DNA of 64,000 nt from Alphaproteobacteria bacterium SS10 (GCA_019192455.1 JAHCML010000005.1:50277-114276), one strand, 5' to 3'; positions 6,324 through 37,626 are shown, counted from the stretch's first letter. The notes: a model not told the origin generated them from the letters alone. A program made the numbers and translations.

Positions 6324-6353
6324 ACGAGTAAGTCTCCAAATAGGAATAAATGC

Positions 6354-6382
6354 CTTATTGCAGCGCCTCTGCAACAAGTCAA
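6354..6382 (-). promoter_or_regulatory. Putative leftward promoter (-35 TTGACT, 17 nt, -10 AATAAG) with an embedded inverted repeat TTGCAG-N5-CTGCAA (6358-6374)
   Basis: Read directly from the AT-rich divergent region between the 6323 (-) and 6439 (+) starts. The palindrome occupies the spacer and -10. Confidence 0.4.
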
Positions 6383-6438
6383 CAAAAAAGGAAAATATGC
6401 CTATATGAAATTCCGTAGGCGTATGGGAAATTAAACCT

Positions 6439-7065
6439 ATGTTTACCCATGGAGATATTTGGCGCGGGATCGATCGCCTGGCACAAAGCCGGGGCATGAG
6501 CCCATCTGGCCTGGCTAAAAAGGCTGGGCTCGACCCAACCACGTTTAATAAGAGCAAGCGGACCACGGGATCAGGCAAAAGCCGTTGGCCATCAACGGAG
6601 AGCCTGTCGAAGATTTTGGAGGCGACCGGTGCCTCGCTAGCGGAGCTTGTTGGCCTCATCGAAGAGCGGCAACCGGCACGCAGCCAAATCCCGCTGATCG
6701 GCTTTGCAGAGGCCGGACAGCAAGGGTTTTTCGACGATGGCGGCTTCCCGGCGGGTGCTGGCTGGGACCTGGTTGAGGCCCCCAGTATCGATGATGAGCA
6801 CGCCTATGCGCTGGAGGTTAGCGGCCATAGTATGGAGCCCGCCTTTGGCCCTGGTGACATCCTGATCGTCTCACCTGGTGCTACGATCCGACGGGGTGAC
6901 CGGGTGGTAGTGAAGACGCAAGGTGGCGAGGTAATGGCCAAGGAGCTAGTCCGCCAGACGGCCACGAAGATCGAGCTGAAGAGCATCAACCCGGATCACG
7001 AAAACCCGGTTTTGGCCTTGAGTGATGTTGAGTGGATGGCGCGCATTCTGTGGGCTAGCCAATAG
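6439..7065 (+). CDS. CI/LexA-like repressor: XRE-type HTH plus S24 peptidase domain
   Basis: N-terminal HTH (MSPSGLAKKAGLDPTTFNKSKR). C-terminal S24 signature (EVSGHSMEP Ser nucleophile, VMAKEL Lys). Possible Ala-Gly self-cleavage site in FAEAGQQG. Confidence 0.85.
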   Translation: MFTHGDIWRGIDRLAQSRGMSPSGLAKKAGLDPTTFNKSKRTTGSGKSRWPSTESLSKILEATGASLAELVGLIEERQPARSQIPLIGFAEAGQQGFFDDGGFPAGAGWDLVEAPSIDDEHAYALEVSGHSMEPAFGPGDILIVSPGATIRRGDRVVVKTQGGEVMAKELVRQTATKIELKSINPDHENPVLALSDVEWMARILWASQ

Positions 7066-9539: not shown

Positions 9540-11138
9540 TTATGCGGCGGTCTCGCTAACCAGGGCACCGTCCAGCGCTTGCTGGATCAGCTCTTTGGTC
9601 TCTTCAATACCGTAGAGCTTCACGAAGGACCCAAAGCGTGGCCCCTGATCCTGGCCAAGCAGGACCTGATAGAGCGCCTTAAACCAATCGCGTAGTGGCT
9701 CAAACCCATGGGTTTTACCGATGGAGAAGATCGCGGTTTGGATTTCCTCGGTCTCCATCTCCTGGGTCAGCTCACCCAGTGCTTTTAACAGATCCTCAAA
9801 CGCGGCGCGCTCCTGATCTGTTGGTGCGCGGTAGGCTTTCTCCGGCTTCACGAAGTCCTGGTAATAGGTGACCGCATATTCGGTCAGCTTATCCAAGAAT
9901 GGCGCGTTTTCTGGCGTGGCCTCAGGCGCGTAGCGCTTGATGAAGCCCCAAAGCACGGCCTTATCATCCGCGTTCACCACTGATGCGAGGTTCAGCAGGA
10001 TGGCAAAGCTTAGATGGTTTGGTTCTGCCGGTGGGTTGCCATTGTGGATGTGCCAGGCCGGGTTCTCCATCTGCTTGGCTGTTTCTTCACCTGGGAACTT
10101 CTCGGTGAAGGTCAGATACTCATCGACAGCCTTCGGGATGACATCGAAATGCAGCCGCTTTGCTTGGCGTGGCTTCTGCCACATATAGAGCGCCAGGCTC
10201 TCATCCGGGGCATAGCGGAGCCATTCTTCAACCGACAGGCCGTTGCCTTTGGATTTGGAGATCTTCTGACCTTCCGAATCTAGGAACAGCTCATAGTTGA
10301 AGCCCTCTGGCGGCTTTGACCCCATGATCCGGGTGATCTTGGAGGAGACCTTCACACTCTCGATCAGGTCTTTGCCCGACATCTCATAATCAACGCCGAG
10401 GGCATGCCAGCGCATGGCCCAATCGGGCTTCCACTGCATCTTCACATTGCCGCCGGTGACCGACAGCTCAACTTTCTGACCGTCGACGTCTTCAAAGACG
10501 ATGGTCCCGGCATCCGGCTTGGTCTCAAGGATTGGCAACTGCAATACCTCACCGGTGGAGGGCGAGATCGGCAGGAAGATGGAGTAGGTCGCGCGCCGCT
10601 CTGGCCCCAGGGTTGGCAGCATCACGCCCATGATCTCGTCATAGCGTTCTAGGGCCGTTTGCAGTGCCTCATCGAACATGCCCGCCTTGTAGCAATCGGT
10701 GGATGAGTAGAAATCATACTCAAAGCCAAACTGGTCCAAGAACGCCTTCAGCCGATCGTTGTTATGGCGACCAAAGCTGTCATGGGTGCCGAAGGGATCT
10801 GGCACGACGGTGAGCGGCTTATTCAGGTGCTGCTGCAGCAGTTCCTGGTTCGGCACGTTGTCCGGGACCTTACGCAGGCCATCCATGTCATCAGAGAAAC
10901 AGATGAGCTGTGTCGGTAAGTCCGACAAACGTTGGAAGGCCTGGCGCACCATGGTGGTGCGGACCACCTCACCAAAGGTGCCGATATGCGGTAGGCCGGA
11001 TGGGCCATAGCCGGTTTCGAAGATGACCTTGCCACTCTTCGGCGGCGTCTTCTCAAACCGCTGCACGAGTTTTCGTGCTTCCTCAAACGGCCAGGCGCGG
11101 GCGTTTTGGGCGAGCTCTCTCTCGGTTTGTGCGGTCAT
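9540..11138 (-). CDS. lysK: Lysine--tRNA ligase, class I
   Basis: GLPHIGTFGE (HIGH-type) and KISKSKGNG (KMSKS-type) motifs. 532 aa with the N-terminal WPFEEARK typical of class I LysRS. Confidence 0.95.
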   Translation of the reverse strand: MTAQTERELAQNARAWPFEEARKLVQRFEKTPPKSGKVIFETGYGPSGLPHIGTFGEVVRTTMVRQAFQRLSDLPTQLICFSDDMDGLRKVPDNVPNQELLQQHLNKPLTVVPDPFGTHDSFGRHNNDRLKAFLDQFGFEYDFYSSTDCYKAGMFDEALQTALERYDEIMGVMLPTLGPERRATYSIFLPISPSTGEVLQLPILETKPDAGTIVFEDVDGQKVELSVTGGNVKMQWKPDWAMRWHALGVDYEMSGKDLIESVKVSSKITRIMGSKPPEGFNYELFLDSEGQKISKSKGNGLSVEEWLRYAPDESLALYMWQKPRQAKRLHFDVIPKAVDEYLTFTEKFPGEETAKQMENPAWHIHNGNPPAEPNHLSFAILLNLASVVNADDKAVLWGFIKRYAPEATPENAPFLDKLTEYAVTYYQDFVKPEKAYRAPTDQERAAFEDLLKALGELTQEMETEEIQTAIFSIGKTHGFEPLRDWFKALYQVLLGQDQGPRFGSFVKLYGIEETKELIQQALDGALVSETAA

Positions 11139-11236
11139 CGTTCAATCTCGTGGATTTCGGGTTTCAAGAATGGTCTGGCCTGATTAGTGCCAGACCGGCG
11201 CATTGCTTAAACCATCGCTGCGGCTTAAGGCTAGTG

Positions 11237-14152
11237 ATGATGTGGGGCGACCCCAATCCCGTGACCATCAATCAGTCCGCTCTCTTGTCTGATCAGTCGA
11301 ACAACCTGCCGGCCTCGACGCCCAATCCACTGACCCAACTGCCCGTCATGGTGATGGGTGCCGCGGGTCCGTTGCGCCGCGCGGTGACGGGCGAGATTGC
11401 CAAGCTCTCAATCGCCGAGGCGCGGGATAAGCTGACCGCCGAGCCACATCTGATCTGCCATGGCCGTGCCATCGGTCGACGGCTGGAAATGAAGGGCGTT
11501 GCCCCTGGCTTTGATCTGCTGGAGCTCTTTGCCTTCTGCCGCCCGGCGCAGTTCTGCCTGCCGACGGTTGGTGGTTTGGCGGAGTTGCTTGACCTTACCA
11601 AGCCCGCGCCCGGTGATATGGACGCACAGTTCGAGGCGATGCCGCTGATCGGTCATGCCTTGCTTGAGGAGTTGGCCGCGCCGATGCGCGGTGACCGGGA
11701 CATCGCTGGCCCCATTGCCTTTGCCATGGCGGAGGGGGGCTGGCCTTGGGGCAAGCTGGTGCTGGACCGGTTGGGCATGAACGGGCCACCCACCGGCCAG
11801 GATTTGTTTAACGCCTTTGCCGTTTGGCGCCGGGCCCCGGAATGGGAAGACCGGGCACCGCCACCGCCGCCGGGCAATGATGCGGTGGACCCGCCCGCCG
11901 CCCGAACCCAGCTGGATCGATTGCTGGCAGCGAGGGGCGGTCAACGTGAGGCACGGCCCCAACAGGCAGACTATGCCAGCGCGACGGCCGCAGCTTTCCG
12001 CCCCCGCGCGGCAGAGGGTGAACCGAACGTTATACTTGCCGAGGCAGGCACCGGTGTGGGGAAAACGCTCGGTTACTTGGCGCCTGCCACCCTGTGGTCG
12101 CAGATGAATGAAGGGCCGGTGTGGGTTGCCACCTACACAAGGAACCTGCAGCGCCAGATTGATGATGAGCTGCAGCGCTTGTCGGAGATGGTGCCGCCCG
12201 AGCAGGTGGTCGTGCGCAAGGGGCGGGAGAACTTTTTATGCCTGCTGAATTTTGAGGAGGCGATCCAGCGCATCGCCACCACGCCTCAGAACGCAGTACC
12301 GCTTGGTTTGCTAACCCGTTGGGCGAGTGCCAGCCGGGATGGCGCACTGGTCGCCGGGGATCTGCCGGGCTGGCTTACGGATCTGGCTGGCCGGTCCCGG
12401 ACGGCGGCGCTCGCCGATAAGCGGGGCGAATGTATCTATGCCGCCTGCCCGCACTATCGCCGCTGTTATATCGAACGCAATACCAGGGCGGCGAAACACG
12501 CCCGTGTCGTTGTCGCGAACCACGCGCTGGTGCTCTACCACGCCGCCACGGCCGCCCAAGAGGCGATCGAGGCGATGCCCACCCATTATGTGTTTGATGA
12601 GGGGCACCACCTATTCGATGCCGCCGACAGCGCATTTGGCATCGCGCTGACAGCGCAGGAAGCCGCCGAACAGCGGCGTTGGCTGTTAGGCGCTGAAACC
12701 GGTCGCAGCAGCCGGGCCCGTGGCCTTGCCCGCCGGGTTGAGGATTTGCTGGCCGGGGATGAGGAAGGCCTGGCCGCCATGGATGCCGCGCAGGAAGCAG
12801 CGCGCACCCTGCCCAGCCAGGGCTGGCAAAAGCGGTTGGGTGAGGATGGCGCCAAAGGGGCGGGGGAGCGTTTCTTCGCCGCCGTGCGTGACCATGTCTA
12901 CACCCATGCCGGTGGTAAGGAGAGCCCGTACGATCTTGAGGCCCCGCCGCTACCCATGACCCCAGCGCTGATTGAACAGGCGCGTGGCTTTGCCGATGGG
13001 CTGGGTCGGTTGATCGATCCACTCTCCACGATCAAGCGCCGCCTGATCCGCCTGATGGATGAGCGGGCGGAGGATTGGGATACTGATACCAGGCAGCGGG
13101 CTGATTCCCTGGCGCGTGGGATTGAACGGCGGGTTGAGCAGACCTATCGCGGCTGGCGTATGGGCCTAGTTACCCTGGCTGACTTTGCAGAAGCGTCAGC
13201 GGGTATCAGCAACGATAACCCAGCCAGCGCTGACCCCGGCCTCAGCGGTGCTGTGATTGATGAGAAGTTTGTCGATTGGTTTGCGGTATCGCGGATTGAA
13301 GGACGGGATATCGATATCGGCTATCACCGACATTGGGTTGATCCAACCGAGCCAATGGTTGAGACGGTACTGACCCACGCCCAGGGCGCGGTCGTCACCT
13401 CCGCCACCCTTACCGATGGCGGGGCTAAGCCCATTGCCGGTGAAGAGGATCAGGACGCGCAGCGCTGGGTGGCGGCGGAGCGGGTTAGCGGTGCCAATCA
13501 CCTGCCCATTACACCTGTGCGTGCGCGCGTTCGCTCCCCCTTTGATTACCCATCGCAGACCCGTGCCTACATCGTCACCGATGTGAACAAGCACGATATG
13601 GATCAACTGGCGACCGCCTATCGCGCGCTGTTTGAGGCGTCGGGCGGTGGGGCGCTGGGGCTGTTCACCGCCATCCAACGTTTGCGGGCGGTGCATGGGC
13701 GTTTAGCACCAGCAATGGAGGCAGCGGGGCTACCACTTTATGCCCAGCACGCCGATGGTATCGACCCCTCCACCCTCGTTGATATCTTCCGGGGTGAGCG
13801 GGATGCTTGCCTGCTTGGCACCGATGCGATTCGAGATGGTGTGGATGTGCCCGGTGATGCCTTAAGGCTGGTGGTCTTTGACAGGGTGCCATGGCCACGG
13901 CCCAGCCTGATCCATAAGGCTAGGCGTCAACGATTTGGCGGCCAGGCCTATGATGATGAGCAGATACGCCTCCGCCTGCGTCAGGCCTTTGGACGTTTGA
14001 TCCGGCGCGGTGATGATCGAGGGGTGTTTGTGATGTTGGACAGCGCCGTGCCATCCCGCCTGCTGCCTGCCTTCCCAGAGGGGGTTGAGGTCCAGCGGGT
14101 TGGCCTGTCAGCGGCGATTGCCGGCGTTCGGGATTTCGTCAGTAGCCAGTGA
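11237..14152 (+). CDS. DinG/Rad3-family ATP-dependent DNA helicase with an Fe-S cluster domain
   Basis: Walker A AEAGTGVGKTLGY, DEGHHL box, and Cys cluster C..CPHYRRC. The start is moved to the ATG at 11237 to avoid overlapping lysK. The protein has a long N-terminal extension. Confidence 0.85.
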   Translation: MMWGDPNPVTINQSALLSDQSNNLPASTPNPLTQLPVMVMGAAGPLRRAVTGEIAKLSIAEARDKLTAEPHLICHGRAIGRRLEMKGVAPGFDLLELFAFCRPAQFCLPTVGGLAELLDLTKPAPGDMDAQFEAMPLIGHALLEELAAPMRGDRDIAGPIAFAMAEGGWPWGKLVLDRLGMNGPPTGQDLFNAFAVWRRAPEWEDRAPPPPPGNDAVDPPAARTQLDRLLAARGGQREARPQQADYASATAAAFRPRAAEGEPNVILAEAGTGVGKTLGYLAPATLWSQMNEGPVWVATYTRNLQRQIDDELQRLSEMVPPEQVVVRKGRENFLCLLNFEEAIQRIATTPQNAVPLGLLTRWASASRDGALVAGDLPGWLTDLAGRSRTAALADKRGECIYAACPHYRRCYIERNTRAAKHARVVVANHALVLYHAATAAQEAIEAMPTHYVFDEGHHLFDAADSAFGIALTAQEAAEQRRWLLGAETGRSSRARGLARRVEDLLAGDEEGLAAMDAAQEAARTLPSQGWQKRLGEDGAKGAGERFFAAVRDHVYTHAGGKESPYDLEAPPLPMTPALIEQARGFADGLGRLIDPLSTIKRRLIRLMDERAEDWDTDTRQRADSLARGIERRVEQTYRGWRMGLVTLADFAEASAGISNDNPASADPGLSGAVIDEKFVDWFAVSRIEGRDIDIGYHRHWVDPTEPMVETVLTHAQGAVVTSATLTDGGAKPIAGEEDQDAQRWVAAERVSGANHLPITPVRARVRSPFDYPSQTRAYIVTDVNKHDMDQLATAYRALFEASGGGALGLFTAIQRLRAVHGRLAPAMEAAGLPLYAQHADGIDPSTLVDIFRGERDACLLGTDAIRDGVDVPGDALRLVVFDRVPWPRPSLIHKARRQRFGGQAYDDEQIRLRLRQAFGRLIRRGDDRGVFVMLDSAVPSRLLPAFPEGVEVQRVGLSAAIAGVRDFVSSQ

Positions 14153-14178
14153 TTTGGCAATGGGCGTAAGCGGGCAAC

Positions 14179-14215
14179 AAAAAAGCCCCGGGCGATGCCG
14201 GGGCTGTTTTTGTTT
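14179..14215. terminator. Bidirectional rho-independent terminator
   Basis: AAAAAGCCCCGG-gcgatg-CCGGGGCTGTTTTTGTTTG: an 8-bp GC stem flanked by an A-run and a T-run, lying between convergent genes. Confidence 0.75.
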
Positions 14216-14228
14216 GTCTATCGCTGAC

Positions 14229-14879
14229 TTACGCGAGGCGCAGGAACCGGGCAATGGCCAGGGCAGCGTCTTTGGTGCGAAGCATTGAGGTCAGACGACC
14301 TTCATCCAGTGGCAGCCACTCAGATGGCTCACCATGGCTCAGCATTTCCAGGGTCGCGGCACCACGATCAGGACCGTTGATGGCGAAGGTCAGGCGGCGC
14401 TGAACGCCGGTTGCTTCACTGCCGATCAGAATGGTTTGATTGCCGTTGTCGTTGCTGGTATTGTCCAAGCGGGCAACCCAACCGTGAGACTGGCGCAGGG
14501 CGTCGTTGAGGGCAGCACCAAAGACGGGCCACACTTTATCCTCAGCACCACCAACTTCACCGGCCATCACGCCGTCATTGGCTGCGGTTTGCAGTTCCAC
14601 AACGAAATCGCGGACTGGCATCGCTTCACCGTGGCTGATCCAGTTGCCGTTCTCATCAGCGCTCTGGGCCTCAAGGGTCCAAGGGCTGGTGTCGCGGGTG
14701 AGGATCAGGCGCTCTTCCATACCGCCAATGCGGTAGAAGGTGACCGCACTGATGCTGTCAGGCTGGTAACCATTTTCAGTGCCAGGCAGGTATCCTTGGC
14801 GGCGTAGGAAGCCAACCAGGGCGGCCATGAACTGACCCATTTCGTCGTTATTTTGTTCTAGGGGGCGGGCAAGATTCAT
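14229..14879 (-). CDS. Hypothetical two-module protein (paralog of 15149..15892)
   Basis: The ORF is trimmed to the ATG at 14879 because the upstream extension is K/R-rich nonsense. The motif order is alignable to the neighbouring gene. Confidence 0.6.
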   Translation of the reverse strand: MNLARPLEQNNDEMGQFMAALVGFLRRQGYLPGTENGYQPDSISAVTFYRIGGMEERLILTRDTSPWTLEAQSADENGNWISHGEAMPVRDFVVELQTAANDGVMAGEVGGAEDKVWPVFGAALNDALRQSHGWVARLDNTSNDNGNQTILIGSEATGVQRRLTFAINGPDRGAATLEMLSHGEPSEWLPLDEGRLTSMLRTKDAALAIARFLRLA

Positions 14880-18862: not shown

Positions 18863-20134
18863 TTGCGGTGGCCGCGAAGCGCCGTGTTATCCTGGCGCAA
18901 CAGTTCGACAAAGTGCAGGTATGTCGTGGCGTTCTTACTTAATGATTTGGGCGGTCAAATTGGTTTCGGGACTAACTTCCTGGAACGAAATGATGACGGG
19001 TCTACCCAGGCCATCGACATCACGCCGGTGTTTGAGAATGGCCTAGATCTCTTTGGCCAAGTTTATAATGAGATCTACGTTAACAATAACGGCTCGATCA
19101 CCTTTGACGCGCCGCGTTCAACCTTTACGCCGGATGCCATCACTGCGGTTAGCAACAACCCAGAGTTCACGCCATTCTTTGCGGATGTGGACACCCGTTT
19201 GCCGACGGGTGTTGGGGATGTTGGCCCGGGTACGGTTACGCCGACACCAGGCGGTAACTCCCAAGGAACCAACCTAGTCTGGTACGAGCTAGACACCAAT
19301 AGTGACCGGATTGTTGTCACCTGGGATGACGTTGGCTTCTTTAGCTCTGATATCTCACTACTGAACGCGTTTCAGCTCGTGGTGACCAAGGTTGGTGACC
19401 AGGATTTCAATATTGAATTCCGATATGAGGACATCAATTGGACCACCGGTGATGCGTCAGGTGGTGTTGATGGCCTGGGCGGCACAATTGCGCGGGCTGG
19501 CTATACCGCAGGTGATGGCGAAAATTTCTTCGAACTCCCCGCGTCTGGTGATCAATCTCAGATGCTGCTGCTTGAGCAATCACAGGGCAACACTGGCGTC
19601 GCTGGACTATGGCAGTTTGACTTCCGTGACGGTGAGGTTGTTGATCCGAGCGATCAATTCACTGGCGGCGGCGGTAGCGATGAAATTCGTGCCGGTGAGG
19701 GTAATGACACGATCTTTGGCCTGGCTGGCGAAGACGTGCTCTACGGTAACCAAGATGACGACGTGATCTATGGCAATCAGGATTATGACATCCTGTTTGG
19801 TGGCCGGGGTAATGATACGCTGTATGGCGGCCAGGATGGCGATATCCTGGTTGGTGGCGTTCAAAACGATGTCTTCTACGGTAACCAGGGGCCCGACACG
19901 ATGTTTGGCCAGGGCGGCGCCGATGTGTTCTTCATCGGCCCTGACATCGATCTGATCCCCGACTTCAATCCCGCGTTAGACCGTGTCGATGTCCTTGATG
20001 ATATTGGCCTGCCGGAGAAGTTTAACCTGCTGCGCCCCACTTTGGATGGCGACACCTTTGTCTTTTACAAGGGCGGCGGCGTGATTCTGCAGGGGCTCGC
20101 ATTTGAAGATGCGACGATCGATATCTTTTTGTAG
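18863..20134 (+). CDS. Secreted NIDO-domain protein with RTX (hemolysin-type Ca-binding) repeats
   Basis: NIDO-like signature: FGTNFLERNDDGSTQAIDITPVF...IYVNNNGSITFD...FFADVDTR...FRYEDINWTTGDASGG...GLWQFDF. It is followed by GGxGxD nonapeptides (GEGNDTIFG, GEDVLYGNQDDDVIYG...). The start is uncertain; a GTG at 18926 is possible. Confidence 0.8.
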   Translation: MRWPRSAVLSWRNSSTKCRYVVAFLLNDLGGQIGFGTNFLERNDDGSTQAIDITPVFENGLDLFGQVYNEIYVNNNGSITFDAPRSTFTPDAITAVSNNPEFTPFFADVDTRLPTGVGDVGPGTVTPTPGGNSQGTNLVWYELDTNSDRIVVTWDDVGFFSSDISLLNAFQLVVTKVGDQDFNIEFRYEDINWTTGDASGGVDGLGGTIARAGYTAGDGENFFELPASGDQSQMLLLEQSQGNTGVAGLWQFDFRDGEVVDPSDQFTGGGGSDEIRAGEGNDTIFGLAGEDVLYGNQDDDVIYGNQDYDILFGGRGNDTLYGGQDGDILVGGVQNDVFYGNQGPDTMFGQGGADVFFIGPDIDLIPDFNPALDRVDVLDDIGLPEKFNLLRPTLDGDTFVFYKGGGVILQGLAFEDATIDIFL

Positions 20135-20450: not shown

Positions 20451-21740
20451 ATGCGTTCAATTGCAATCTCGGGTAAGCCCGAATTTCTAAAACCTGTCAG
20501 CGCTGCTGGCGGCACAGATTTTAAGCCACTTTTTGATCTCGACGGTGATTACGACCTCAAGACGGAACTGGCCCCGCATATCGCCAAGGCTAATGGCTAT
20601 GTCATCCTGCCTGGTGCTGATCCGCTGCTCACCACCTCGCTTTTCATCGATTACCAGTTCCAAGCACCGGCCGTTCGCGGCAAGCCTCTGGTCATTTATT
20701 CACCAGATGATGCGCCGAGCCCCTATATCGGTTTGATCCGAACTCTGCGTGACCGCGGCTTTGTCCATCAGCCGGAAAAACAGTTTTTCACCGTTGCCAA
20801 GACCCTCGATGAAATCCCAGCCAAGCTGGATGAGGGCATTTGGATGCCGGAGCTTAACCCGGCTGATGATCACGAGCATGATCCGGAATACATGGATCTG
20901 GTCGATGAGTTGAATGCCAAGGGTGCGGATAAGGTTCGCCCCAACCTGAACGTGGCGGTCTTTACCTCTGCCTCAACCAAAGATCCATCCATGCTGCAGC
21001 TGGCCCGTAAGACCGGGCAGCTATTGGCTGAGAATGGCTACGGCATGGTGTTTGGTGGCTCTAACGTCTCCATGATGGGGCAGGTCGCCGCTGGGGTTCA
21101 TGATCGCGATGGTTACGTCACCGGCGTCACCACCGGCCTATTCTTCGGCAAAGAGCTGAAGGTTGCCCAGAAAGACGAGATCAACATCGACAACATCCGC
21201 ATCGCGGATGACATCTATGACCGTATGGACGACATGATCCGGCAGTCAGACGCCCTTGTCGTTCTGCCCGGCGGCATTGGAACCGTTCAGGAAATGCTCG
21301 CCGTCATGCATATGCGGGAAAATGATCCCAGCCTGCATGGCCGCCCGGTCATTCTCTATAATGAAGAGGGCTTTTGGGACGATCTTCAGGATGTGCTGAA
21401 GGACTATGGCTATGAGCCTGGCAACCACTTCCATGTGGTGGATAATCAGCGCGATCTCGACAAGACCCTGGAGCGTACTATCGGCCGTGATAATGGCCCT
21501 GCCATCGACGCTACGGGTCAGCAGCCGCTGATCACTGGTGATGCTGATACGGAACGGCGCCTGTCTAGCTGGCGCCGCCGAAATGGCGGGGACACCCGGA
21601 ACACCGGAAGTCAGCGCCTTACCAGCGGGCCGGATCAACCGCGCCAGCAGGTAAATGGCCCAGACCAATCCGATGTGGATCGCCGACTGACCGATCGCCG
21701 CCGGGGTAACGATCGCCGTGACCCGAGGCCTGGTGGCTAA
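20451..21740 (+). CDS. LOG-family (TIGR00730-like) protein A: N-terminal degenerate half-LOG, full LOG domain, basic disordered tail
   Basis: VAVFTSAS, FGGSNVSMMG, IYDRM, LPGGIGTVQEMLAV and GRPVILYNEEGFWDDL align motif-for-motif with canonical LOG proteins. Confidence 0.75.
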   Translation: MRSIAISGKPEFLKPVSAAGGTDFKPLFDLDGDYDLKTELAPHIAKANGYVILPGADPLLTTSLFIDYQFQAPAVRGKPLVIYSPDDAPSPYIGLIRTLRDRGFVHQPEKQFFTVAKTLDEIPAKLDEGIWMPELNPADDHEHDPEYMDLVDELNAKGADKVRPNLNVAVFTSASTKDPSMLQLARKTGQLLAENGYGMVFGGSNVSMMGQVAAGVHDRDGYVTGVTTGLFFGKELKVAQKDEINIDNIRIADDIYDRMDDMIRQSDALVVLPGGIGTVQEMLAVMHMRENDPSLHGRPVILYNEEGFWDDLQDVLKDYGYEPGNHFHVVDNQRDLDKTLERTIGRDNGPAIDATGQQPLITGDADTERRLSSWRRRNGGDTRNTGSQRLTSGPDQPRQQVNGPDQSDVDRRLTDRRRGNDRRDPRPGG

Positions 21741-21743
21741 TTG

Positions 21744-22997
21744 ATGGCGAAGGTTCTGGTTTCGGGCAGCGCGCCCGCTGGTATTACAGCAAACCAATTG
21801 ACCGGTGACCGCCGTCACCGACTGCTAGGCGATCTGGCAGACGACTACGAATTCCATAAAGAGCTAGAGACACGCATGGAGACGGCGGACGCCTATGTCT
21901 TCATGCCCGATGCTGACCCTATGCTGGCCATGTCAGTCTTGGTGGCAAAGCGGATTGAGCCCGATCTCTATTGGGACAAGCCGGTCGTCTTTGTTGAAGA
22001 GAATGGCAAGCGGCATCCGCTGGCTCGCCTGTTTGAAGACATGTCGGCCCGTGGCTTGGCGAAAGAGAAACCGGATGAGGTGTTCCAACTCGCCAATGGT
22101 ATCGGCCAAGTGCGCGACGTTATCGGCGTCATTAATGAGGCAAAGCGGAAGCCGCCACCTCAACCAAAACCTGCTGGTGAGCCCGACTTCAAGCCACCAA
22201 CATCGGCACCGGGCGGCGCCCTTCATCTGCCCAATAGTGGCTGTAAACCCGAAGCGACTCTGCCCGATGTAACGATCGCGGTTTATTGCTCGGCCTCAAC
22301 TAAGGATGAGGCGGATATCGCGCTCGCAACCCGTACCGGCGATGAGATTGGCAAACGCGGCTGGGGCATGACCTATGGCGCGGGCAACGTCTCAATGATG
22401 GGGGCTGTTGCGCGTGGGGCGATTGCCCATGGCACCTGCGTCCACGGGGTTACCACCGAACAGGTCTGGCGCAACAACGGTGAGTTGGCGACTGACGACA
22501 AGAACCTACCGATGACCAGCCTGAGCCTTACCCAGGACATCTATGAGCGCATGTATCAGATGTTCATGCCGGAGCCGGACAAGCCGGTGAAAGGTGTGAT
22601 GGTCCTGCCGGGTGGTGCCGGGTCCAGCCAAGAAATGTTTGCGATGCTACAGCTTCGTAAGGCAGAGCCGCTGTTCAAGGATGTGCCGTTGGTGATCGTT
22701 AATCACAACGGAGCTTGGAACGAGCTGATCAAATCAGCGGAAGAATACGGCCTTAAAGCCGGTGCAGACTTCCACGTCTTTGATGATGAGCGGGAGGCGA
22801 TGCCGTTCCTGGATCGTGAAGTGGCCAAGCTTGATGCCCGCCCCGACTGGCCTTATCCGCCAGCGGCTGGCGATATCGATCAGGTTGCCAAACGCCTCGG
22901 TGGTTGGCGTTCAGACAAGCGCCCTGGCCAGGGTCCCGATATCGATGATGGTAGCGGTCCGAAGGGGCCGCGCGATGGTGGGCAGCCGGCGCCTTAG
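21744..22997 (+). CDS. LOG-family protein B (paralog of A, same architecture)
   Basis: IAVYCSAS, YGAGNVSMMG, IYERM, LPGGAGSSQEMFAM, VPLVIVNHNGAWNEL. The ATG lies 3 nt after the stop of gene A. Confidence 0.75.
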   Translation: MAKVLVSGSAPAGITANQLTGDRRHRLLGDLADDYEFHKELETRMETADAYVFMPDADPMLAMSVLVAKRIEPDLYWDKPVVFVEENGKRHPLARLFEDMSARGLAKEKPDEVFQLANGIGQVRDVIGVINEAKRKPPPQPKPAGEPDFKPPTSAPGGALHLPNSGCKPEATLPDVTIAVYCSASTKDEADIALATRTGDEIGKRGWGMTYGAGNVSMMGAVARGAIAHGTCVHGVTTEQVWRNNGELATDDKNLPMTSLSLTQDIYERMYQMFMPEPDKPVKGVMVLPGGAGSSQEMFAMLQLRKAEPLFKDVPLVIVNHNGAWNELIKSAEEYGLKAGADFHVFDDEREAMPFLDREVAKLDARPDWPYPPAAGDIDQVAKRLGGWRSDKRPGQGPDIDDGSGPKGPRDGGQPAP

Positions 22998-23030
22998 CGC
23001 CTTACCTTCACATAACCAACTTACACGTGA

Positions 23031-23924
23031 TTAGGGTATTTTCCGCCGTGGCGCCTGATCCGGGCCGCCCGGGTCATCGGAGTTGGCTGGTGGGCCAATC
23101 TGTGGCTTCGGCGGCTGGTACTCTGCGTCACCAGCTTTCAGCCGTGCTGCCTGTTCCTCAACCGGCTTGAAGTGGTCGGTTCTGGGGTCGGCCCATTTGA
23201 ACTTACCCTTGGCGGCTAGCTCTGGATCCGGATCGACCGTGACCAGGCGAACATCAACCGGTCCGCCCAAATCTTCCTCGCGCTTATCGAGGATTTCTTT
23301 GCCATCCATGATGTCCACCGCCCAATTGCGGGCAAAGCGATCATCCACATCCAGTGAGCTGGTGGTGGAGACAAAAGTGCTGATCCCAGTGCGTGAAATT
23401 TTACGGGCACATCGTGGACAGCTGGAGTGGGTCGCGTAAACGCCCAGATATTTGGTTGGAACCGGGGGCGTTTCGCCATTGTTCACCCGGCGCATAAAGT
23501 CGTCGAGCACCGTCTCCTCAGCATGGGCGATGTTCTTATCTTTGCGGTCCCGGTCCGCGCGCATCTCGTCATCGGTCATATGGATGCCGGAGGCGAAACT
23601 GTTGGCGGCCTTGCCTAGGATTTCACCGGTGCGGATATCGAACAGTACAGCGGCAACCTTGGTGGTCCGCTGCGAGCTGTAGGGCTGCATCTCTTGTGCC
23701 GCCGCGATAATCGCTTCCATGTTTGGGATTGGGTCGGTATCGCCACCGCCCTGGGCGCGCCAACGGGCCAGGTTCGCGCCAATGGCTGGCGTCGCATCGT
23801 CTGGTTTTGGTGGATCGCCGTCTGGGCGATCATCAAGTGGCGTGCTCATCTCTAATGTCGGCATCGGCACTGCGATGCTCAAGTCCTTCTCTCGAGGGCG
23901 CAAACCGCCCCTGGGACAACCCAT
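23031..23924 (-). CDS. CDA-fold (dCMP/cytidine deaminase-like) zinc deaminase with N- and C-terminal extensions
   Basis: HAEETV (H-A-E) and SSCPRCARKISRTGIS (CxxC) with spacing as in dCMP deaminase/ComEB. The start codon is uncertain (M1, M21 or M26). Confidence 0.7.
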   Translation of the reverse strand: MGCPRGGLRPREKDLSIAVPMPTLEMSTPLDDRPDGDPPKPDDATPAIGANLARWRAQGGGDTDPIPNMEAIIAAAQEMQPYSSQRTTKVAAVLFDIRTGEILGKAANSFASGIHMTDDEMRADRDRKDKNIAHAEETVLDDFMRRVNNGETPPVPTKYLGVYATHSSCPRCARKISRTGISTFVSTTSSLDVDDRFARNWAVDIMDGKEILDKREEDLGGPVDVRLVTVDPDPELAAKGKFKWADPRTDHFKPVEEQAARLKAGDAEYQPPKPQIGPPANSDDPGGPDQAPRRKIP

Positions 23925-23992
23925 AATAGCCTAAAAATGTTTCAAAATCATGTCGGTAGCCAAATACCGACGCTTCGAAACATCTGGCCCTA

Positions 23993-28499: not shown

Positions 28500-28991
28500 A
28501 TGATCATGCTTCAGGAGGATATCGGAGCCGTGGCACGCGCATTTTTGTTTGGTTTGATGGCGATGGCTCTGTTGCTGTCCACCCCGATTTCCGAGGCTAA
28601 GGCCCAGCAGTTCCAGGGCGGTGAGGCAGGCGCTTTCCAGCAGTTCCAGCGGGTTCAGCCCCGCGCGGTGCCGTTTGGCGGAGAGCAGGCGGTGATGTGT
28701 GTTCGTGACCGCGAGATCCAGCGTACCGGCAGCCGTACCTGTATCTATAGCTGCGATAACGGCAGCTCGATCAGTCGTCAGATTTCACGCACAAGGTTCT
28801 GCGAGACTTCCTTCCAAACGACCCAACGGTCATTGCTGAACGAGATCCAGAATATTGAGCCAACCCAATGTCGCTTGCGTCGGTTACGTCAAACCCGCAC
28901 CGATAAAATCTGCATCTATGATTGTGGTGGTGAAACGGTGAACCTACCGGTGGCCCACAGCCAGACCTGTGACCGGCGGTATTCTCGTTAA
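28500..28991 (+). CDS. Secreted protein with two 4-Cys repeats
   Basis: Signal peptide ...LLLSTPISEAKA, then two copies of the pattern C-x13-C-IY-x-C-x(13-15)-C. No known family recognised. Confidence 0.6.
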   Translation: MIMLQEDIGAVARAFLFGLMAMALLLSTPISEAKAQQFQGGEAGAFQQFQRVQPRAVPFGGEQAVMCVRDREIQRTGSRTCIYSCDNGSSISRQISRTRFCETSFQTTQRSLLNEIQNIEPTQCRLRRLRQTRTDKICIYDCGGETVNLPVAHSQTCDRRYSR

Positions 28992-33203: not shown

Positions 33204-33293
33204 GGTGAGGTGGCCGAGTGGTTTAAGGCGCACGCCTGGAACGCGTGTATAGGGGAAACTCTATCGTGGGTTCGAATCCCACCCTCACCGCCA
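33204..33293 (+). tRNA. tRNA-Ser (anticodon GGA), CCA encoded
   Basis: Acceptor GGTGAGG/CCTCACC, anticodon stem CACGC/GCGTG with loop CTGGAAC, long variable arm, T-loop GGTTCGAATCC, 3' GCCA. Confidence 0.9.
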
Positions 33294-33330: not shown

Positions 33331-36255
33331 ATGGCCGGTAAGCGCCGCAAATCTAAGCCACATGGCCGATTTCTAGTCGTTGATACCGAACTACAGACCA
33401 AGATTGGCCACAATTTCAATGCCACCAGCCGGGTTGCTAGGGCTGCGATCGATTTCGGCTTTGACCAGGTTGTCATCGGGTGCAACCGTCATTTCTCCGC
33501 TGCCCCAGCTGCGGCTCTGGATGTCGAGGGCACCAACATTGATGTGGTGCCTGGCTTTTCATCCCAGGCTTATGACCTCTTCACCGACCAATCCTTCAGC
33601 CCCTCGCTGAATGCCAACAGCATTCATTACGGCGTCTATAACGCAAAGGCACTCTATGCTGAGTTGAGTGGATTTTTGGATCAGGTCGAGGCGACGAGCC
33701 AGGATCTGCTCTACTTCCACACCTTTTCTTTGGCGACAGCAGAGGCGGTGCTGCGCCTTTTGCGCAATCGGGCGCCGGCACAGACCCCGACCATTCATGC
33801 CCTTGTCTATATGAAGCCGCACCTCCTGCAGTTGTCGGAGGTAAAACAATCGAAGTTTCCCGGCATCCTGGACCGCTTTGCGGCTGAAGGGTTCCTCGAC
33901 ACCAAAATCTTCTTCCATGTTGAGACCAAGCGGTTGCAGCAGGCCTATGCAGAGCTTGGCTTCGACTTCCCGGTTCTTTTTGGTCCTATCTCAACCCCAG
34001 CTGCGGTGACTGATGCCAAAAGCCGCAAGAAGGAAGCGAAGCAGCGCCAGGTTGCGTTCTTAGGCGAGGCCCGGGCGGAGAAAGGTTTCTGGATCCTGGC
34101 GGAGATCATCAATATCTTCGCGCATCGCTATCCCGGCATGCTGAAGAAGACCAAGTTTGTCATCCAGTGTGAGGCCAATGGCGATAACCAAGCCCATCCG
34201 TGGGTTCAGGAATCCATCGATCGGCTGAAGAGGATCGCCAAGCTTCACGACAACATCTCGCTTATCTCCTCTGTTGAGAAATCGGAGTATGAGGCACTGA
34301 TTGCCGAGAGCGACATCATTCTGCTGCCCTATGATTTGGAGGCTTATGAATGCCGTGGCTCCGGCGTTGCCTATGAGGCCCTCGCTTATGGCCAGAGCCT
34401 TATTGTTCCGGCTGACACCGATATTGATGTCAGCTTCGATTTCCCGAACGTCATTGCCGCTGACAATTACTGCCCTGAGACCTTCGCTGAACGGATTTAC
34501 GACGCTGTGAAAATGCCCCAGTCGCAATGGCTGGAAGCATCCAAAGAGGCGATCGCCTATATCGAGCAATTCAATGGGCCCGGTTTTATCAGCCGCCTTG
34601 TCGATGGTGCGAAAACACGCAGCGCCGCCGCCAAGAAGGCCGAGGCGAAACGCAGTGCGCCTAAGAAACGTGCGCTGCTGCTTTGTTGTGGCACACTCGA
34701 TGGCGGTGTCGGCATGGTGCAGAAGGCGCAGTTAAGCGCACTCTGTGATTTGGGTATTGATGTCGACTGCGTATTCTTGCCCTGGTCGCTCTCGACCATT
34801 CAGTCGTCATTCGAAGAAGCTGAGTTTTACAACAGCATCGATAACCGACGGGATGAGTTTGATATTCCCGAGGGCGCCGGGATCATCGCTTACACCCCTT
34901 ACGTTCTGTCGAAGACGAGTGTGGATGCCGAGCGGATCATCATGACGCTCAACGACCGGGTTAACGTCAACAGCTTCGAATCCTTTGAGTACCGAACCAC
35001 GTTGATCGACCCTGATTACTATGCCGAGTTTATTCGGGACCAAGAGTACGATTGGGCGATCGTCAACTATCCCTTCTATATTGGCGCGCTAGATTTACTG
35101 GGCGCCAAGTATAAGAAGCTGATCGTTGAGACCCACGATCTGCAGGCAAAACAGATGTATTTCCGACGGTTAAGCGCCGGGCGGCCTGAAGATACCGACA
35201 AGTACATTGAAAAAGACTACCGGGATGAGCTGGCGGCCTCCGGACAGGCTGATGCGCTGGTCCATATCAGTGAGCAGCTGCAGTCAAACTACGCGGGCGT
35301 TCCAGACAGCGTTAAGCAGACCACAATCAGGCCCTGCGTGCCCAAGGCGCAGATCGAGAAATGCCGTGAGCTAAGCCAAGCCGCCCATCGCATTTCAGAT
35401 GTTGGTCAGCTGACTTCCTACCTGACGATTGAGTCCCCGGAGGCCGGTCACGCCCTTCCAGAGTGGATGACCAATAGCGGTGCGAGTGGCCTGGACCTTG
35501 CCTTTATCGGCAGTTCCCACTTCTCCAACGTTGCCTCGCTCAGATGGTTTATCGACAGCGTTTATCTACCCATCCTTCGGCCCCTAGGCGTTAATTTCTC
35601 AGTGGCCGGTTCGATATGCGCTGATCTGGGCGATTATGGTGATCAGCTCTGGCGGTTAGGGCGCGTCCGGGATGCGGAGCCACTTCAGCTGGCAGCCCGC
35701 GTCAATGTTTTGGCGGTGGAAAACGGAACCGGCTTCCCGACCAAGGTGATTGAGACCTTATCCTTGGGTCAGGCATTCTCCGCGTCAGCTTATGGCTTTT
35801 ATGAGTTGGCAGATCAGGCGGCCAAATACTTCCCGGTGCTAGATGCCATCGATGATTGGGCAGACGATATCTTAGAGCAGCTGCTGTTAAGACCCGCGCG
35901 ATCAATCCGGGGCAAGGATGGTCGGCGCTTTGCTTCGAAGCATTTCTCACCGGCAAACTATCGCAATAGCTGGGCCAAGGTGCTTGGGCATCGTAAGGCT
36001 ATGCCGAAGGGCTTTGATGAAGACTTCTACCAGGGCACCGGTCATGCCGAGGTGAACCTTGAGCAGAGAATTCCGCTGTTAAACCAAGAGTTACTCAAGC
36101 GGCTACCCCCCAATCGACTACGCCGGTTACAGCGGCGCAACCCGGTCCTGAAGCGTTTGACCGGGGCCGTGAAAGATCACCGCATTGATAACTGGGTTGA
36201 TGGTGTCGTCGAAGATCTGAGCCGTTCGACAGACAAAGGGGCGGGTCAGAAATGA
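33331..36255 (+). CDS. Large (974 aa) protein with two GT-B-type glycosyltransferase-like halves
   Basis: VAFLGEARAEKGF...ILLPYDLEAYECRGSGVAYEALAYGQSLIVP resembles the GT1/GT4 C-terminal motif. A second similar segment reads LAFIGSSHFSN...NGTGFPTKVIETLSLGQAF. Confidence 0.65.
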   Translation: MAGKRRKSKPHGRFLVVDTELQTKIGHNFNATSRVARAAIDFGFDQVVIGCNRHFSAAPAAALDVEGTNIDVVPGFSSQAYDLFTDQSFSPSLNANSIHYGVYNAKALYAELSGFLDQVEATSQDLLYFHTFSLATAEAVLRLLRNRAPAQTPTIHALVYMKPHLLQLSEVKQSKFPGILDRFAAEGFLDTKIFFHVETKRLQQAYAELGFDFPVLFGPISTPAAVTDAKSRKKEAKQRQVAFLGEARAEKGFWILAEIINIFAHRYPGMLKKTKFVIQCEANGDNQAHPWVQESIDRLKRIAKLHDNISLISSVEKSEYEALIAESDIILLPYDLEAYECRGSGVAYEALAYGQSLIVPADTDIDVSFDFPNVIAADNYCPETFAERIYDAVKMPQSQWLEASKEAIAYIEQFNGPGFISRLVDGAKTRSAAAKKAEAKRSAPKKRALLLCCGTLDGGVGMVQKAQLSALCDLGIDVDCVFLPWSLSTIQSSFEEAEFYNSIDNRRDEFDIPEGAGIIAYTPYVLSKTSVDAERIIMTLNDRVNVNSFESFEYRTTLIDPDYYAEFIRDQEYDWAIVNYPFYIGALDLLGAKYKKLIVETHDLQAKQMYFRRLSAGRPEDTDKYIEKDYRDELAASGQADALVHISEQLQSNYAGVPDSVKQTTIRPCVPKAQIEKCRELSQAAHRISDVGQLTSYLTIESPEAGHALPEWMTNSGASGLDLAFIGSSHFSNVASLRWFIDSVYLPILRPLGVNFSVAGSICADLGDYGDQLWRLGRVRDAEPLQLAARVNVLAVENGTGFPTKVIETLSLGQAFSASAYGFYELADQAAKYFPVLDAIDDWADDILEQLLLRPARSIRGKDGRRFASKHFSPANYRNSWAKVLGHRKAMPKGFDEDFYQGTGHAEVNLEQRIPLLNQELLKRLPPNRLRRLQRRNPVLKRLTGAVKDHRIDNWVDGVVEDLSRSTDKGAGQK

Positions 36256-36890
36256 AGTATGTGATCCGTGAAACGGGGCTCTTGGATCCGTTGCTTGATG
36301 AGGGCAACGATACCCAGCTGGAGATCCTAAAATCGATCGGACACGTTATGTGTCTGCTGCACTGCCGACAGTGGGATTTCAAATCGACGAATGATTTGGA
36401 ACAGTGGTTGGTCAGTGTCCTGCTTACCGAGCAGTCTGATCTGCGCCGCAGGCCTGGGCCCACACAGACCATACGCAGCATTGTGCAGAAGCGCGTTATT
36501 CGGCCTACCGCCAATCTGCAGATGCCGCAACTATGGGCAAGCATTCTTGATCTCCGCCCGGACGTTGAAAAGTTCGTTGCGGAGCGGCACACCAAAGCCA
36601 ATGACGAGCCGTTTCTGCGCCTCGTCTTTTGGTTCTTTAATAACGGTATCTCGGAGTATCACTTGCGGGATTACGTCGGCCCGGTCATTGACCGGCATTT
36701 TAGGGCGGATGGTAAGAAACTGGCCTCGATATGGCGTGGGGTTTGGATAGTTCGTGAGGATTTACGCGATGCGTTTGATCTATCTACGGCTAAGGGCACC
36801 AAGGAATATCAAGCCTGGCTGGGCGATGGTTTAGCCCGTGAGTATCCGGCCCTCGCCAAGATTGCCGCCGAAATCAGTCAACAAGGCTAG
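36252..36890 (+). CDS. Hypothetical protein carrying the W-x2-R-x-D-L repeat module also seen in the GT at 46190
   Basis: 4-nt overlap with the upstream gene. The two modules read LWASILDLRPDVEKF...FWFFNNGISEYHL and IWRGVWIVREDLRDAFDL...YQAWLGDGLAREYP. Confidence 0.6.
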   Translation: MKYVIRETGLLDPLLDEGNDTQLEILKSIGHVMCLLHCRQWDFKSTNDLEQWLVSVLLTEQSDLRRRPGPTQTIRSIVQKRVIRPTANLQMPQLWASILDLRPDVEKFVAERHTKANDEPFLRLVFWFFNNGISEYHLRDYVGPVIDRHFRADGKKLASIWRGVWIVREDLRDAFDLSTAKGTKEYQAWLGDGLAREYPALAKIAAEISQQG

Positions 36891-36900
36891 CTCTCTCTAA

Positions 36901-37626
36901 ATGGAAGATAAGACCAAATTTGTTCTGATATCGGTCGCACGGACTGGGTCTAACTACATTGTCGGGATGCTGAATAAGCACCCCGACTGCCACTGCCATT
37001 TCGAGATTGCCAACCCTAGTCAGGTCGTCGGCGCCGAAGGTGGTCCGGTTACGACCAATCGCCCCCTTACCCGGGAGTTTCGTGACGAAGATCCAGTTGG
37101 TTTTACCAATGCGGCCTTCGATACCAAGAAGCCGTTTGCGGCGGTTGGGTTCAAGATCTTCGGTGGTGATGTGCCGGAGATTGTTCAGTTCGCCCTGAAG
37201 TCTAAGGACATCAAAAAGATCGTCTTAAGGCGCGATAACCTCCTCGCCTCCTACTCATCCATGACCATTGCGATGGCGAATGGTGTCTGGCGGGCGAAGG
37301 AGAAGAGTGATCTGCGAGAGACTAAGGTTGAGTTCATCCCTGAGAAGTTTGATCACTATCGCAATGTTACGTCCCAGTTCTACCAACGGGTTGAGCACCA
37401 GTTGTCCAGCGAAGGGCAAGAGTTCCTGAAGCTCAGTTACTCTAAGCTGCGTGATCCAGAGCAGGCACAGGCCCTGTTTCGTTTCCTAAACCTCGCTGAA
37501 CCAGCTAGCCCGGAAGCCGATTTGTTGCGACAAAACTCAAAGGACATGCTCGAGCGGTTTTCCAACCCCGCTGTTGTGCAGACCCATATGCGCGATATCG
37601 GTCAAGAAGACTGGATGTCTGAGTAA
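36901..37626 (+). CDS. Sulfotransferase (Stf0-like)
   Basis: 5'-PSB-like loop ISVARTGSNYI and 3'-PB-like IVLRRDNLLASYSS. Confidence 0.7.
   Translation: MEDKTKFVLISVARTGSNYIVGMLNKHPDCHCHFEIANPSQVVGAEGGPVTTNRPLTREFRDEDPVGFTNAAFDTKKPFAAVGFKIFGGDVPEIVQFALKSKDIKKIVLRRDNLLASYSSMTIAMANGVWRAKEKSDLRETKVEFIPEKFDHYRNVTSQFYQRVEHQLSSEGQEFLKLSYSKLRDPEQAQALFRFLNLAEPASPEADLLRQNSKDMLERFSNPAVVQTHMRDIGQEDWMSE

Follow-up and report, generated by a model that had tools for sequence, protein, structure and literature searches.

The window analysed here, a stretch of 64,000 nucleotides (nt) from Alphaproteobacteria bacterium SS10 (GCA_019192455.1 JAHCML010000005.1:50277-114276), carries two coupled paralogous genes, designated A and B, each of which encodes a LOG-family protein of unusual build: a type-I LOG domain is preceded by a degenerate, LOG-derived domain and followed by a disordered tail. 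A third gene, designated C, converges on the pair and encodes a putative zinc deaminase of the cytidine deaminase (CDA) fold. In the reading that we prefer, A and B would constitute a phosphoribohydrolase pair that shares a role in cytosine-nucleotide metabolism with C, and we assign this reading as a whole a probability of about 40%. What is new is an architectural variant of a known family beside a divergent member of another, and not a new kind of system. LOG enzymes are widespread, but apart from the activation of cytokinins in plants little is known of their physiological substrates. The features on which the argument is built are located as follows (window positions; aa, amino acids).

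20451-21740, + strand: gene A, 429 aa, with pseudo-LOG domain, type-I LOG domain and disordered basic tail
20451-20840, + strand: N-terminal degenerate LOG-derived domain of A (N-domain), residues 1-130
20946-21485, + strand: catalytic type-I LOG domain of A, residues ~166-345, with SASTK, GGSNVSMMG, R258 and PGGIGTVQE containing E281
21501-21737, + strand: disordered Arg/Pro/Gly-rich tail of A, residues 351-429, with the LSSWR helix at 21561-21575 and the RLxSGPD motif
21744-22997, + strand: gene B, 417 aa, divergent paralog of A built from the same three parts
22896-22910, + strand: LGGWR motif of B
22998-23030: convergent intergenic gap between B and C, 33 nt from stop to stop
23031-23924, - strand: gene C, 297 aa (272 aa if starting at the Met at 23849), dCMP-deaminase-like zinc deaminase
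23286-23720, - strand: CDA-fold core of C, residues 69-213, with the zinc/catalytic motifs H134-A-E136 and C169-P-R-C172
23757-23771, - strand: LARWR motif of C
23952-23971, - strand: terminator-like hairpin between the stop of rumA and the start of C, from a consensus scan

Genes A and B are closely joined. The TAA stop codon of A (21738-21740) is followed by TTG and then by the ATG of B at 21744, leaving a gap of 3 nt, and a GGTGG element resembling a Shine-Dalgarno sequence precedes this start codon; B is translationally coupled to A. Across the orthologous loci the junction varies from a 1-nt overlap to 39 nt. As judged by BLASTP, the two proteins are paralogs over their full length and not in the LOG domain alone (28% identity over 396 columns, E 1e-47). 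On the opposite strand, C is preceded by rumA-like, infC and thrS genes. No terminator-like site was reported by the consensus scan in the 33-nt gap between B and C, and Rfam and tRNA scans of the A-B-C region returned no matches. The original prediction, which had been made from the sequence alone, described the open reading frames (ORFs), their motifs, the 3-nt junction and the 33-nt gap, and every one of these details was verified in the sequence or its translations. It further proposed that A and B are paralogous members of the LOG/TIGR00730 type with the catalytic hallmarks, that C is a zinc deaminase of the CDA fold, and that the ~420-aa architecture is unlike that of characterised LOG, PpnN and ThsA proteins. 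These three statements are borne out by the profile searches and structure models described in the following.

Both A and B match the LOG profile PF03641 significantly. For A, the match has an E-value of 1.6e-20 (74 bits, cutoff 27), and TIGR00730 is matched with 104.8 bits (cutoff 96.35). For B, the PF03641 match likewise exceeds the cutoff (9.6e-13, 48.9 bits), and the TIGR00730 score of 67 bits lies under it. In a profile search of the PDB, the LOG domain of A retrieved 3qua (1.2e-30) and Mycobacterium tuberculosis Rv1205 (7w2i; 1.7e-30). An AlphaFold2 (AF2) model of A (predicted local distance difference test score, pLDDT, 76) was compared with known structures by Foldseek, and the top matches were again type-I LOGs, namely 3qua, 3sbx and 7w2i (TMt 0.81-0.85, E 8e-12 to 3e-11), with the TMt of 0.85 obtained against AMP-bound type-I LOGs.

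The residues expected of an active enzyme are present in both paralogs. The signature loop reads PGGIGTVQE in A and PGGAGSSQE in B, in which Ser replaces Thr and a 5-residue insertion lies ahead of the motif. Within this loop (numbering of A), G274, G277 and E281 are invariant in 20/20 aligned sequences, while P273, G275 and Q280 are conserved to at least 90% there and are invariant in the alignment of the 14-member core family. R258 and E281, which are 23 residues apart, are invariant in both paralogs and all relatives and align with the Arg and Glu of 7w2i, 3qua, 3sbx and 2a33. The same spacing separates Arg99 from Glu122 in CgLOG (PMC4979012) and R120 from E143 in BpLOG (PMC6864091), residues whose mutation abolishes activity.

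Two positions adjoining the catalytic pair deviate from the canonical pattern. Met occupies the position that follows the catalytic Arg (M259, conserved to at least 90%) and corresponds to CgLOG Lys100; the LOGs of M. tuberculosis, M. smegmatis, M. marinum and Arabidopsis likewise have Lys there. Immediately ahead of the catalytic Glu, Gln (Q280) stands in place of Glu/Asp, at the position of CgLOG Glu121. In CgLOG, Lys100 and Glu121 take part in adenine and prenyl (cytokinin) binding in the base pocket (PMC4979012). The catalytic residues are thus kept while two base-binding residues are replaced, which argues for retained chemistry and a remodelled base pocket. Since it is the adenine- and prenyl-holding residues that are replaced, the preferred base of A and B is probably neither adenine nor a cytokinin. 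If the CMP/dCMP specificity proposed further below is confirmed, R-M (instead of R-K) and Q-E (instead of E-E) would provide a sequence signature for predicting base preference.

Residues 1-130 of A make up an alpha/beta domain, for which Pfam gave no match. When this N-domain was aligned with the family's own LOG domain by hhalign, a probability of 91% was obtained (E 9e-7), and the alignment extends over the C-terminal two-thirds of LOG: 'YVILPGADPLL...GKPLVIYS...RGFV...' of the N-domain corresponds to 'LVVLPGGIGTVQE...GRPVILYN...YGYE...' of the LOG domain. In the N-domain, the PGGxGTxxE loop has become PGADPLL, and the catalytic Arg/Glu as well as the glycine-rich signature are lost. Residues G8, V51, P54, D57, P58, S63, K78, P79 and V81 are invariant and the P-x-x-D-P loop is strongly conserved; judged by these alignments, the N-domain is a conserved non-catalytic derivative of LOG. 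At the other end of the protein, the tail of A is predicted with pLDDT values below 50, except for a short helix at residues 366-378 around L371-S-S-W-R375, and an RLxSGPD motif in this tail is conserved among A orthologues.

This build sets A and B apart from the characterised relatives. With type-I LOGs (Rv1205/7w2i, M. smegmatis 3qua, M. marinum 3sbx, Corynebacterium glutamicum 5its, Pseudomonas aeruginosa 5zbk) they share the Rossmann-like fold, the PGGxGTxxE motif and the Arg/Glu spacing, and with the mycobacterial enzymes also the NVS(A/M)MG variant of the glycine-rich loop. However, type-I LOGs are single-domain homodimers of ~180-200 aa, whereas A and B comprise 417-429 aa including a ~130-aa inactivated domain and a ~80-aa disordered tail, are encoded as translationally coupled paralogs, carry Met for the Lys after Arg and have Gln for the first Glu/Asp of 'xEE'. 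The LOG family at large otherwise consists of single-domain proteins of ~180-260 aa that form homodimers (type I) or hexamers (type II). PpnN resembles them in combining a LOG core with accessory domain(s) in ~450 aa, and hydrolysis of pyrimidine nucleoside 5'-monophosphates (NMPs) is documented for the PpnN branch. Yet the PpnN model NF038390 scores 22.7 bits with A and 17.2 bits with B against a cutoff of 450 and covers the LOG core only, the PDB E-value is 1e-8 for PpnN versus 1e-30 for type-I LOGs, and the accessory domains of PpnN are the alarmone-binding DUF4478/DUF3412, whereas that of A and B is a LOG duplicate. ThsA-type SLOG proteins of Thoeris and other conflict systems share a distant common fold, reflected in a PF18306 match, but A and B lack a SIR2, TIR, macro or transmembrane effector, their LOG catalytic residues are intact and their context is of the housekeeping type. 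Membership of A and B in the PpnN or ThsA groups was ruled out on profile scores.

The match to PF18306 (SLOG cluster 4) also bears on a different reading, according to which A and B would be ligand sensors or scaffolds of the SLOG type: the LOG and pseudo-LOG domains would bind a nucleotide signal, and the basic tails would recruit partners or nucleic acid. A LOG-derived, non-catalytic N-domain with a conserved loop would suit such proteins, as would the loss of the Lys following the catalytic Arg and the long, basic, disordered tails with their conserved short motifs. We nevertheless regard a sensor role as improbable, because the catalytic Arg/Glu and the complete phosphate-binding motif do not vary between the paralogs or in any relative, PF03641 and TIGR00730 outscore PF18306, and an effector domain is neither fused nor adjacent.

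The two-domain architecture is rare. A word-indexed search of 5.8 billion proteins yielded 14 relatives of A. The N-domain profile returned one 80-aa fragment only in the word-indexed search, and the census was taken from an exhaustive search of 1.84 billion representative proteins with an N-domain hidden Markov model, in which 15 proteins were detected at E<=1e-10. All N-domain matches checked among those 15 consist of N-domain plus LOG in 340-420 aa, and the architecture amounts to about 15-20 clusters among the 1.84 billion representatives. The weaker matches correspond to C-terminal halves of ordinary LOGs and thereby confirm where the N-domain originated. In GTDB, a full-length relative is present in only 2 of 185,579 species representatives. 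The databases label the relatives just 'LOG family protein' or 'TIGR00730 family', and as far as the literature was searched, an architecture of pseudo-LOG plus LOG is undescribed. A protein of 926 aa from another metagenome (P0035) has a match to the N-domain profile at ~560-680, together with a Ham1/ITPase-like domain and a LOG domain, and three proteins of ~900-940 aa (P0037, P0038, P0046) have a similar match near residues 560-680. These would represent a second, larger architecture on the same duplicated LOG unit, the domains having been scanned in P0035 alone.

About nine lineages, all within one clade of uncultured Pseudomonadota, carry the coupled A-B duplicate (the window, L001, L004-6, L008, L009, L010-12, L013/14, L095 and L098); their sequences stem from TARA, ENA, JGI and Logan samples. 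The distant relatives are single-copy and reside in unrelated and mostly housekeeping contexts, as in the following loci.

L096: between ruvA and ruvB
L015: between ccm and bio genes
L101: adjoining chvI-chvG-hprK
L099: adjoining manC
L007: adjoining ldcA

As the natural fusion of a pseudo-enzyme with an enzyme, duplicated into a coupled pair, A and B could show how LOG dimers evolve regulation. Active sites of LOG proteins form at dimer interfaces (PMC4979012), and the co-expression of two diverged paralogs therefore suggests that A and B assemble into a heteromer. We propose that the two proteins are translated together as subunits of a phosphoribohydrolase, a lineage-specific member of the LOG family acting on NMPs, which would cleave the N-glycosidic bond to release the free base and ribose-5-phosphate. 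The N-domain may serve as a pseudo-dimer partner or, as the accessory domains of PpnN suggest, as an allosteric nucleotide-binding module.

Gene C encodes a more divergent protein. It matches PF00383 at 1.4e-7 (31.8 bits, cutoff 25) and the PHROG family of dCMP deaminases (PHROG 174) at 1.7e-13, and it gave no NCBIfam match at E<=0.01. The best sequence match in the PDB, the dCMP deaminase of cyanophage S-TIM5 (4p9c), is marginal with an E-value of 0.001-0.007. The motifs HAEE (H134-A-E136) and CPRC (C169-P-R-C172) are invariant in 6/6 members of the C family. An AF2 model of C (pLDDT 64 overall, about 80-90 in the core) was matched best by the dCMP deaminases 2w4l (human), 1vq2 (phage T4), 7fh4 (PBCV-1) and 4p9c, with E-values of 1e-6 to 1e-5, and by further phage dCMP deaminases; TadA, ADAT2 and FCY1 follow close behind. 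In common with the dCMP deaminases (2w4l DCTD, 1vq2 T4 Cd, 7fh4 bi-DCD, 4p9c), C has the CDA fold, HAE and CxxC, and its N-x-x-x-S-G segment aligns to NGxPxG of the S-TIM5 enzyme. However, C is about twice as long as these proteins, its sequence similarity to them is marginal and its PF00383 score is just over the cutoff. It has disordered extensions of ~65 aa at the N-terminus and 30 aa at the C-terminus, and an extra alpha/beta segment of ~70 aa follows the core. Only about 8 homologues of C were found in all, each of those with examined flanks lying in the same syntenic block. On these comparisons, C is a divergent member of the CDA fold, nearest to the dCMP deaminases and probably catalytic.

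If A and B act jointly with C, as in our preferred reading, their most likely role would be of the housekeeping type: a chromosomal pathway by which cytosine nucleotides are turned over or salvaged. In it, CMP or dCMP would undergo deamination to the uracil level and/or hydrolysis to base and sugar phosphate, and the route may run from CMP via cytosine to uracil or from (d)CMP via (d)UMP to uracil. Such a scheme has precedents, in that LOG-family CMP and UMP nucleosidases exist and a CMP hydrolase combined with a cytosine deaminase makes a working cascade (PMC12500856, PMC6864091). If true, a route of cytosine-nucleotide degradation would be added for uncultured marine Pseudomonadota.

Gene neighbourhood speaks for the proposed link. 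In 7 of the ~9 pair-bearing lineages, C lies convergent beside B, and C shares its narrow phyletic range with the duplicated pair, their co-occurrence being near-complete. A second LOG-deaminase neighbourhood was found at locus L002, where a full-length FCY1-type cytosine deaminase (PDB E 1e-41) comes after a single-copy relative with 41% identity to A, both genes being on one strand and between flanks that are unrelated to those in the window (mfd, recG, DUF502 and HAD paralogs). This deaminase was also considered as a TadA, whose presence would be a housekeeping coincidence, and this identity was rejected, as the TadA score of 63.7 bits does not reach the cutoff of 150 and FCY1 is matched at 1e-41. 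C itself is not an orthologue of FCY1: in BLASTP it matches the L002 deaminase with an E-value of 2e-4 over the zinc motif only, and by fold FCY1 ranks below the dCMP deaminases. As a clear FCY1 homologue, the L002 neighbour points to free cytosine as a possible pathway intermediate. By comparison, the surroundings of canonical LOG genes (78 loci, 1.46 Mb) contain 0 ORFs with a zinc-deaminase motif; two immediate adjacencies in ~7 independent contexts are therefore unlikely to have arisen by chance, the probability being ~1e-3 to 1e-4 by a rough estimate. The two independent deaminase neighbours give rise to the hypothesis that those LOG proteins whose base pocket is remodelled form a subgroup specific for CMP/dCMP. 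Just beyond the deaminase and the LOG gene, L002 carries a tandem array of four paralogous HAD-family hydrolases (316-349 aa; 10149-14241, - strand); these may be nucleotidases, which would extend the theme of nucleotide catabolism.

A further feature common to all three proteins is the sequence [LIV]xxWR, a short helix in their extensions. It is found in the disordered extensions of A ('RRLSSWRRRNGGD'), B ('KRLGGWRSDKRPG') and C ('ANLARWRAQGGGD'), at residues 371-375 of A, 384-388 of B (with the ATG at 21744 as start) and 52-56 of C, and is conserved in 5/6 B orthologues examined, and the WR pair is invariant in 6/6 sequences of the C family. In the divergent locus L098, the A-type tail has VGGWR and the B-type tail VGEWK. 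Elsewhere in the window, [LIV]xxWR occurs 5 times in ~15,300 residues.

Set against this evidence is the possibility that the adjacency of C is fortuitous. A and B would then act on purine- or cytokinin-type nucleotides or in general NMP turnover, and C would be unrelated to them, for instance as the clade's dCMP deaminase for dTTP synthesis or as an RNA-acting partner of the rumA-like m5U methyltransferase. Several observations fit this account and weigh against a joint role of A, B and C. The deaminase gene converges on B and is hence never co-transcribed with A and B; it is located on the strand of rumA, infC and thrS and directly follows rumA in 7/7 loci in which the upstream gene is visible. 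The loci with A-B-C all belong to one clade, throughout which the whole block is syntenic, and rumA, infC, thrS, NIDO/RTX, RidA and TerB genes are equally conserved in position. Because of the single narrow clade and the equally conserved housekeeping neighbours, synteny is not independent evidence for the link. A metagenome scan with the deaminase profile uncovered two further loci, both with the same synteny, and so added no independent context. The pair also persists with other downstream genes: in one JGI lineage an ArsR-Acr3-ArsC operon for arsenic resistance is positioned directly after B (L004 4589-6379, + strand; also L005 and L006), and in L098 the gene downstream of the pair is another one than C. 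Of the single-copy relatives, the five at L007, L015, L096, L099 and L101 were examined and have no deaminase neighbour. At L002, a strong hairpin with a T-run, which was missed by the consensus scanner, separates the LOG gene from the cytosine deaminase, so that an operon of the two genes is not supported.

The proteins themselves raise additional points against the joint reading. For B, the TIGR00730 score lies under the cutoff, and its signature contains GS instead of GT. The BpLOG variant K121R is nearly inactive (PMC6864091), and replacement of the Lys100 equivalent by Met could lower the activity of A and B instead of retuning it. The nearest solved LOGs are mycobacterial enzymes of the AMP/cytokinin type, and TadA and ADAT2 are among the fold matches for C, the model of which is of moderate confidence and built on an alignment of 6 sequences. 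Finally, the argument from the shared [LIV]xxWR motif is post hoc. The same motif, the common phyletic range and the replaced adenine/prenyl-binding residues on the other hand speak against a fortuitous arrangement, as does the non-orthologous cytosine deaminase beside LOG in L002 versus 0/78 canonical loci. A terminator-like hairpin between rumA and C also argues against C being simply part of the rumA unit, but this evidence is weak, because such sites in the region do not exceed the shuffle expectation. A truncated ORF at the contig end of L004 encodes a 40-aa C-terminal fragment that matches the C tail at the correct C-terminal positions in a short-BLAST comparison (E 0.05-0.07); it is only suggestive of a C orthologue displaced by the ars insertion.

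Weighing both sides, we consider the deaminase link, and with it a cytosine-nucleotide substrate, plausible while falling short of even odds, and a fortuitous adjacency a serious possibility as well, in which case no more than a rare variant in the architecture of an annotated family would be left. The original prediction had suggested that the three genes could form a module that releases and deaminates a base. This idea gains from the FCY1-type cytosine deaminase adjoining a distant single-copy relative and loses from the hairpin between those two genes and the five lineages without a deaminase. Its expectation that the neighbourhood would be conserved holds insofar as A, B and C are found together in 7 of ~9 related loci, and is blunted by their restriction to a narrow clade with housekeeping neighbours conserved to the same degree. 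Its caveat that the linkage might be fortuitous, given the position of C downstream of thrS-infC-rumA, gains weight, as C comes after rumA wherever the upstream gene is visible. A more elaborate version of our preferred reading, in which the three proteins would form a hitherto undescribed complex for cytosine-nucleotide processing, with a heteromeric LOG, N-domains as allosteric sensors and C recruited via the [LIV]xxWR helix to convert (d)CMP to uracil-level products, appears unlikely to us; a modified cytosine nucleotide as the substrate of such a complex would be a rarer possibility still.

A conflict or effector role had been entertained in the original prediction as well. In that case A/B together with C would act upon phage infection by depleting or corrupting the (d)NMP pool, in the manner of anti-phage dCTP deaminases and other systems that deplete nucleotides. 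LOG/SLOG and CDA deaminase domain types recur in conflict systems, the families of A/B and C are rare and fast-evolving, C is closest to phage-type dCMP deaminases, and a T7-like portal gene is located ~15 kb away. However, when A, B, C and the upstream neighbour were searched against PADLOC-DB (E<=0.01), no match was obtained, and the family profile detected no relatives in 2.9 million viral contigs. The guanine-plus-cytosine (GC) content of the A-B-C region is unremarkable and shows no shift. The genes occupy a clade-stable position with core genes on both flanks and without an integrase or a sensor or toxin partner, the single-copy relatives reside in housekeeping contexts (ruvA/ruvB, ccm/bio, chvI-chvG), and the portal gene is separated from A-B-C by aminotransferase, LysRS, helicase and transporter genes. 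A defence function is thus highly improbable, and a defence or mobile origin was rejected in view of the empty PADLOC and viral-contig scans and the lack of a GC anomaly.

Several other features were recorded in the window. Upstream of A, a gene at 18863-20134 (+ strand) encodes a secreted-type protein with a nidogen-like NIDO domain (PF06119, 6.6e-30) and RTX calcium-binding repeats. Of the related loci long enough to include it, most have this NIDO/RTX gene near and upstream of A as well (L001, L003, L009, L010, L013 and L095; not L008), with an Amt-GGDEF gene intervening in some lineages. Near the left end of the window, an ORF of 553 aa (3229-4890, - strand) represents the T7-like portal or head-to-tail connecting protein (PF12236, E 1.8e-135). 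Of the three adjacent ORFs at 4887-6659 (- strand), two were scanned and had no Pfam match; this part of the window is probably a prophage or phage remnant. The gene at 9540-11138 (- strand) encodes a class-I lysyl-tRNA synthetase (PF01921, 9.7e-134), a form that is rare in bacteria and present in some Alphaproteobacteria.

On the other side of the A-B-C region, a Cys-rich ORF of 163 aa (28500-28991, + strand) is divergent from thrS. Its counterpart in L095 has 43% identity, an ORF of the same size is present in L001, and the C-terminal part of phlebovirus glycoprotein G2 is matched below threshold (23.8 bits, cutoff 25). Further downstream, a tRNA-Ser(GGA) gene (33204-33293, + strand) is followed at 33331-37626 (+ strand) by ORFs of 974, 212 and 241 aa without Pfam match and then by methyltransferase and sulfotransferase genes. 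The GC content of this stretch is slightly lower (0.53-0.55), and the stretch may be a genomic island at the tRNA gene.

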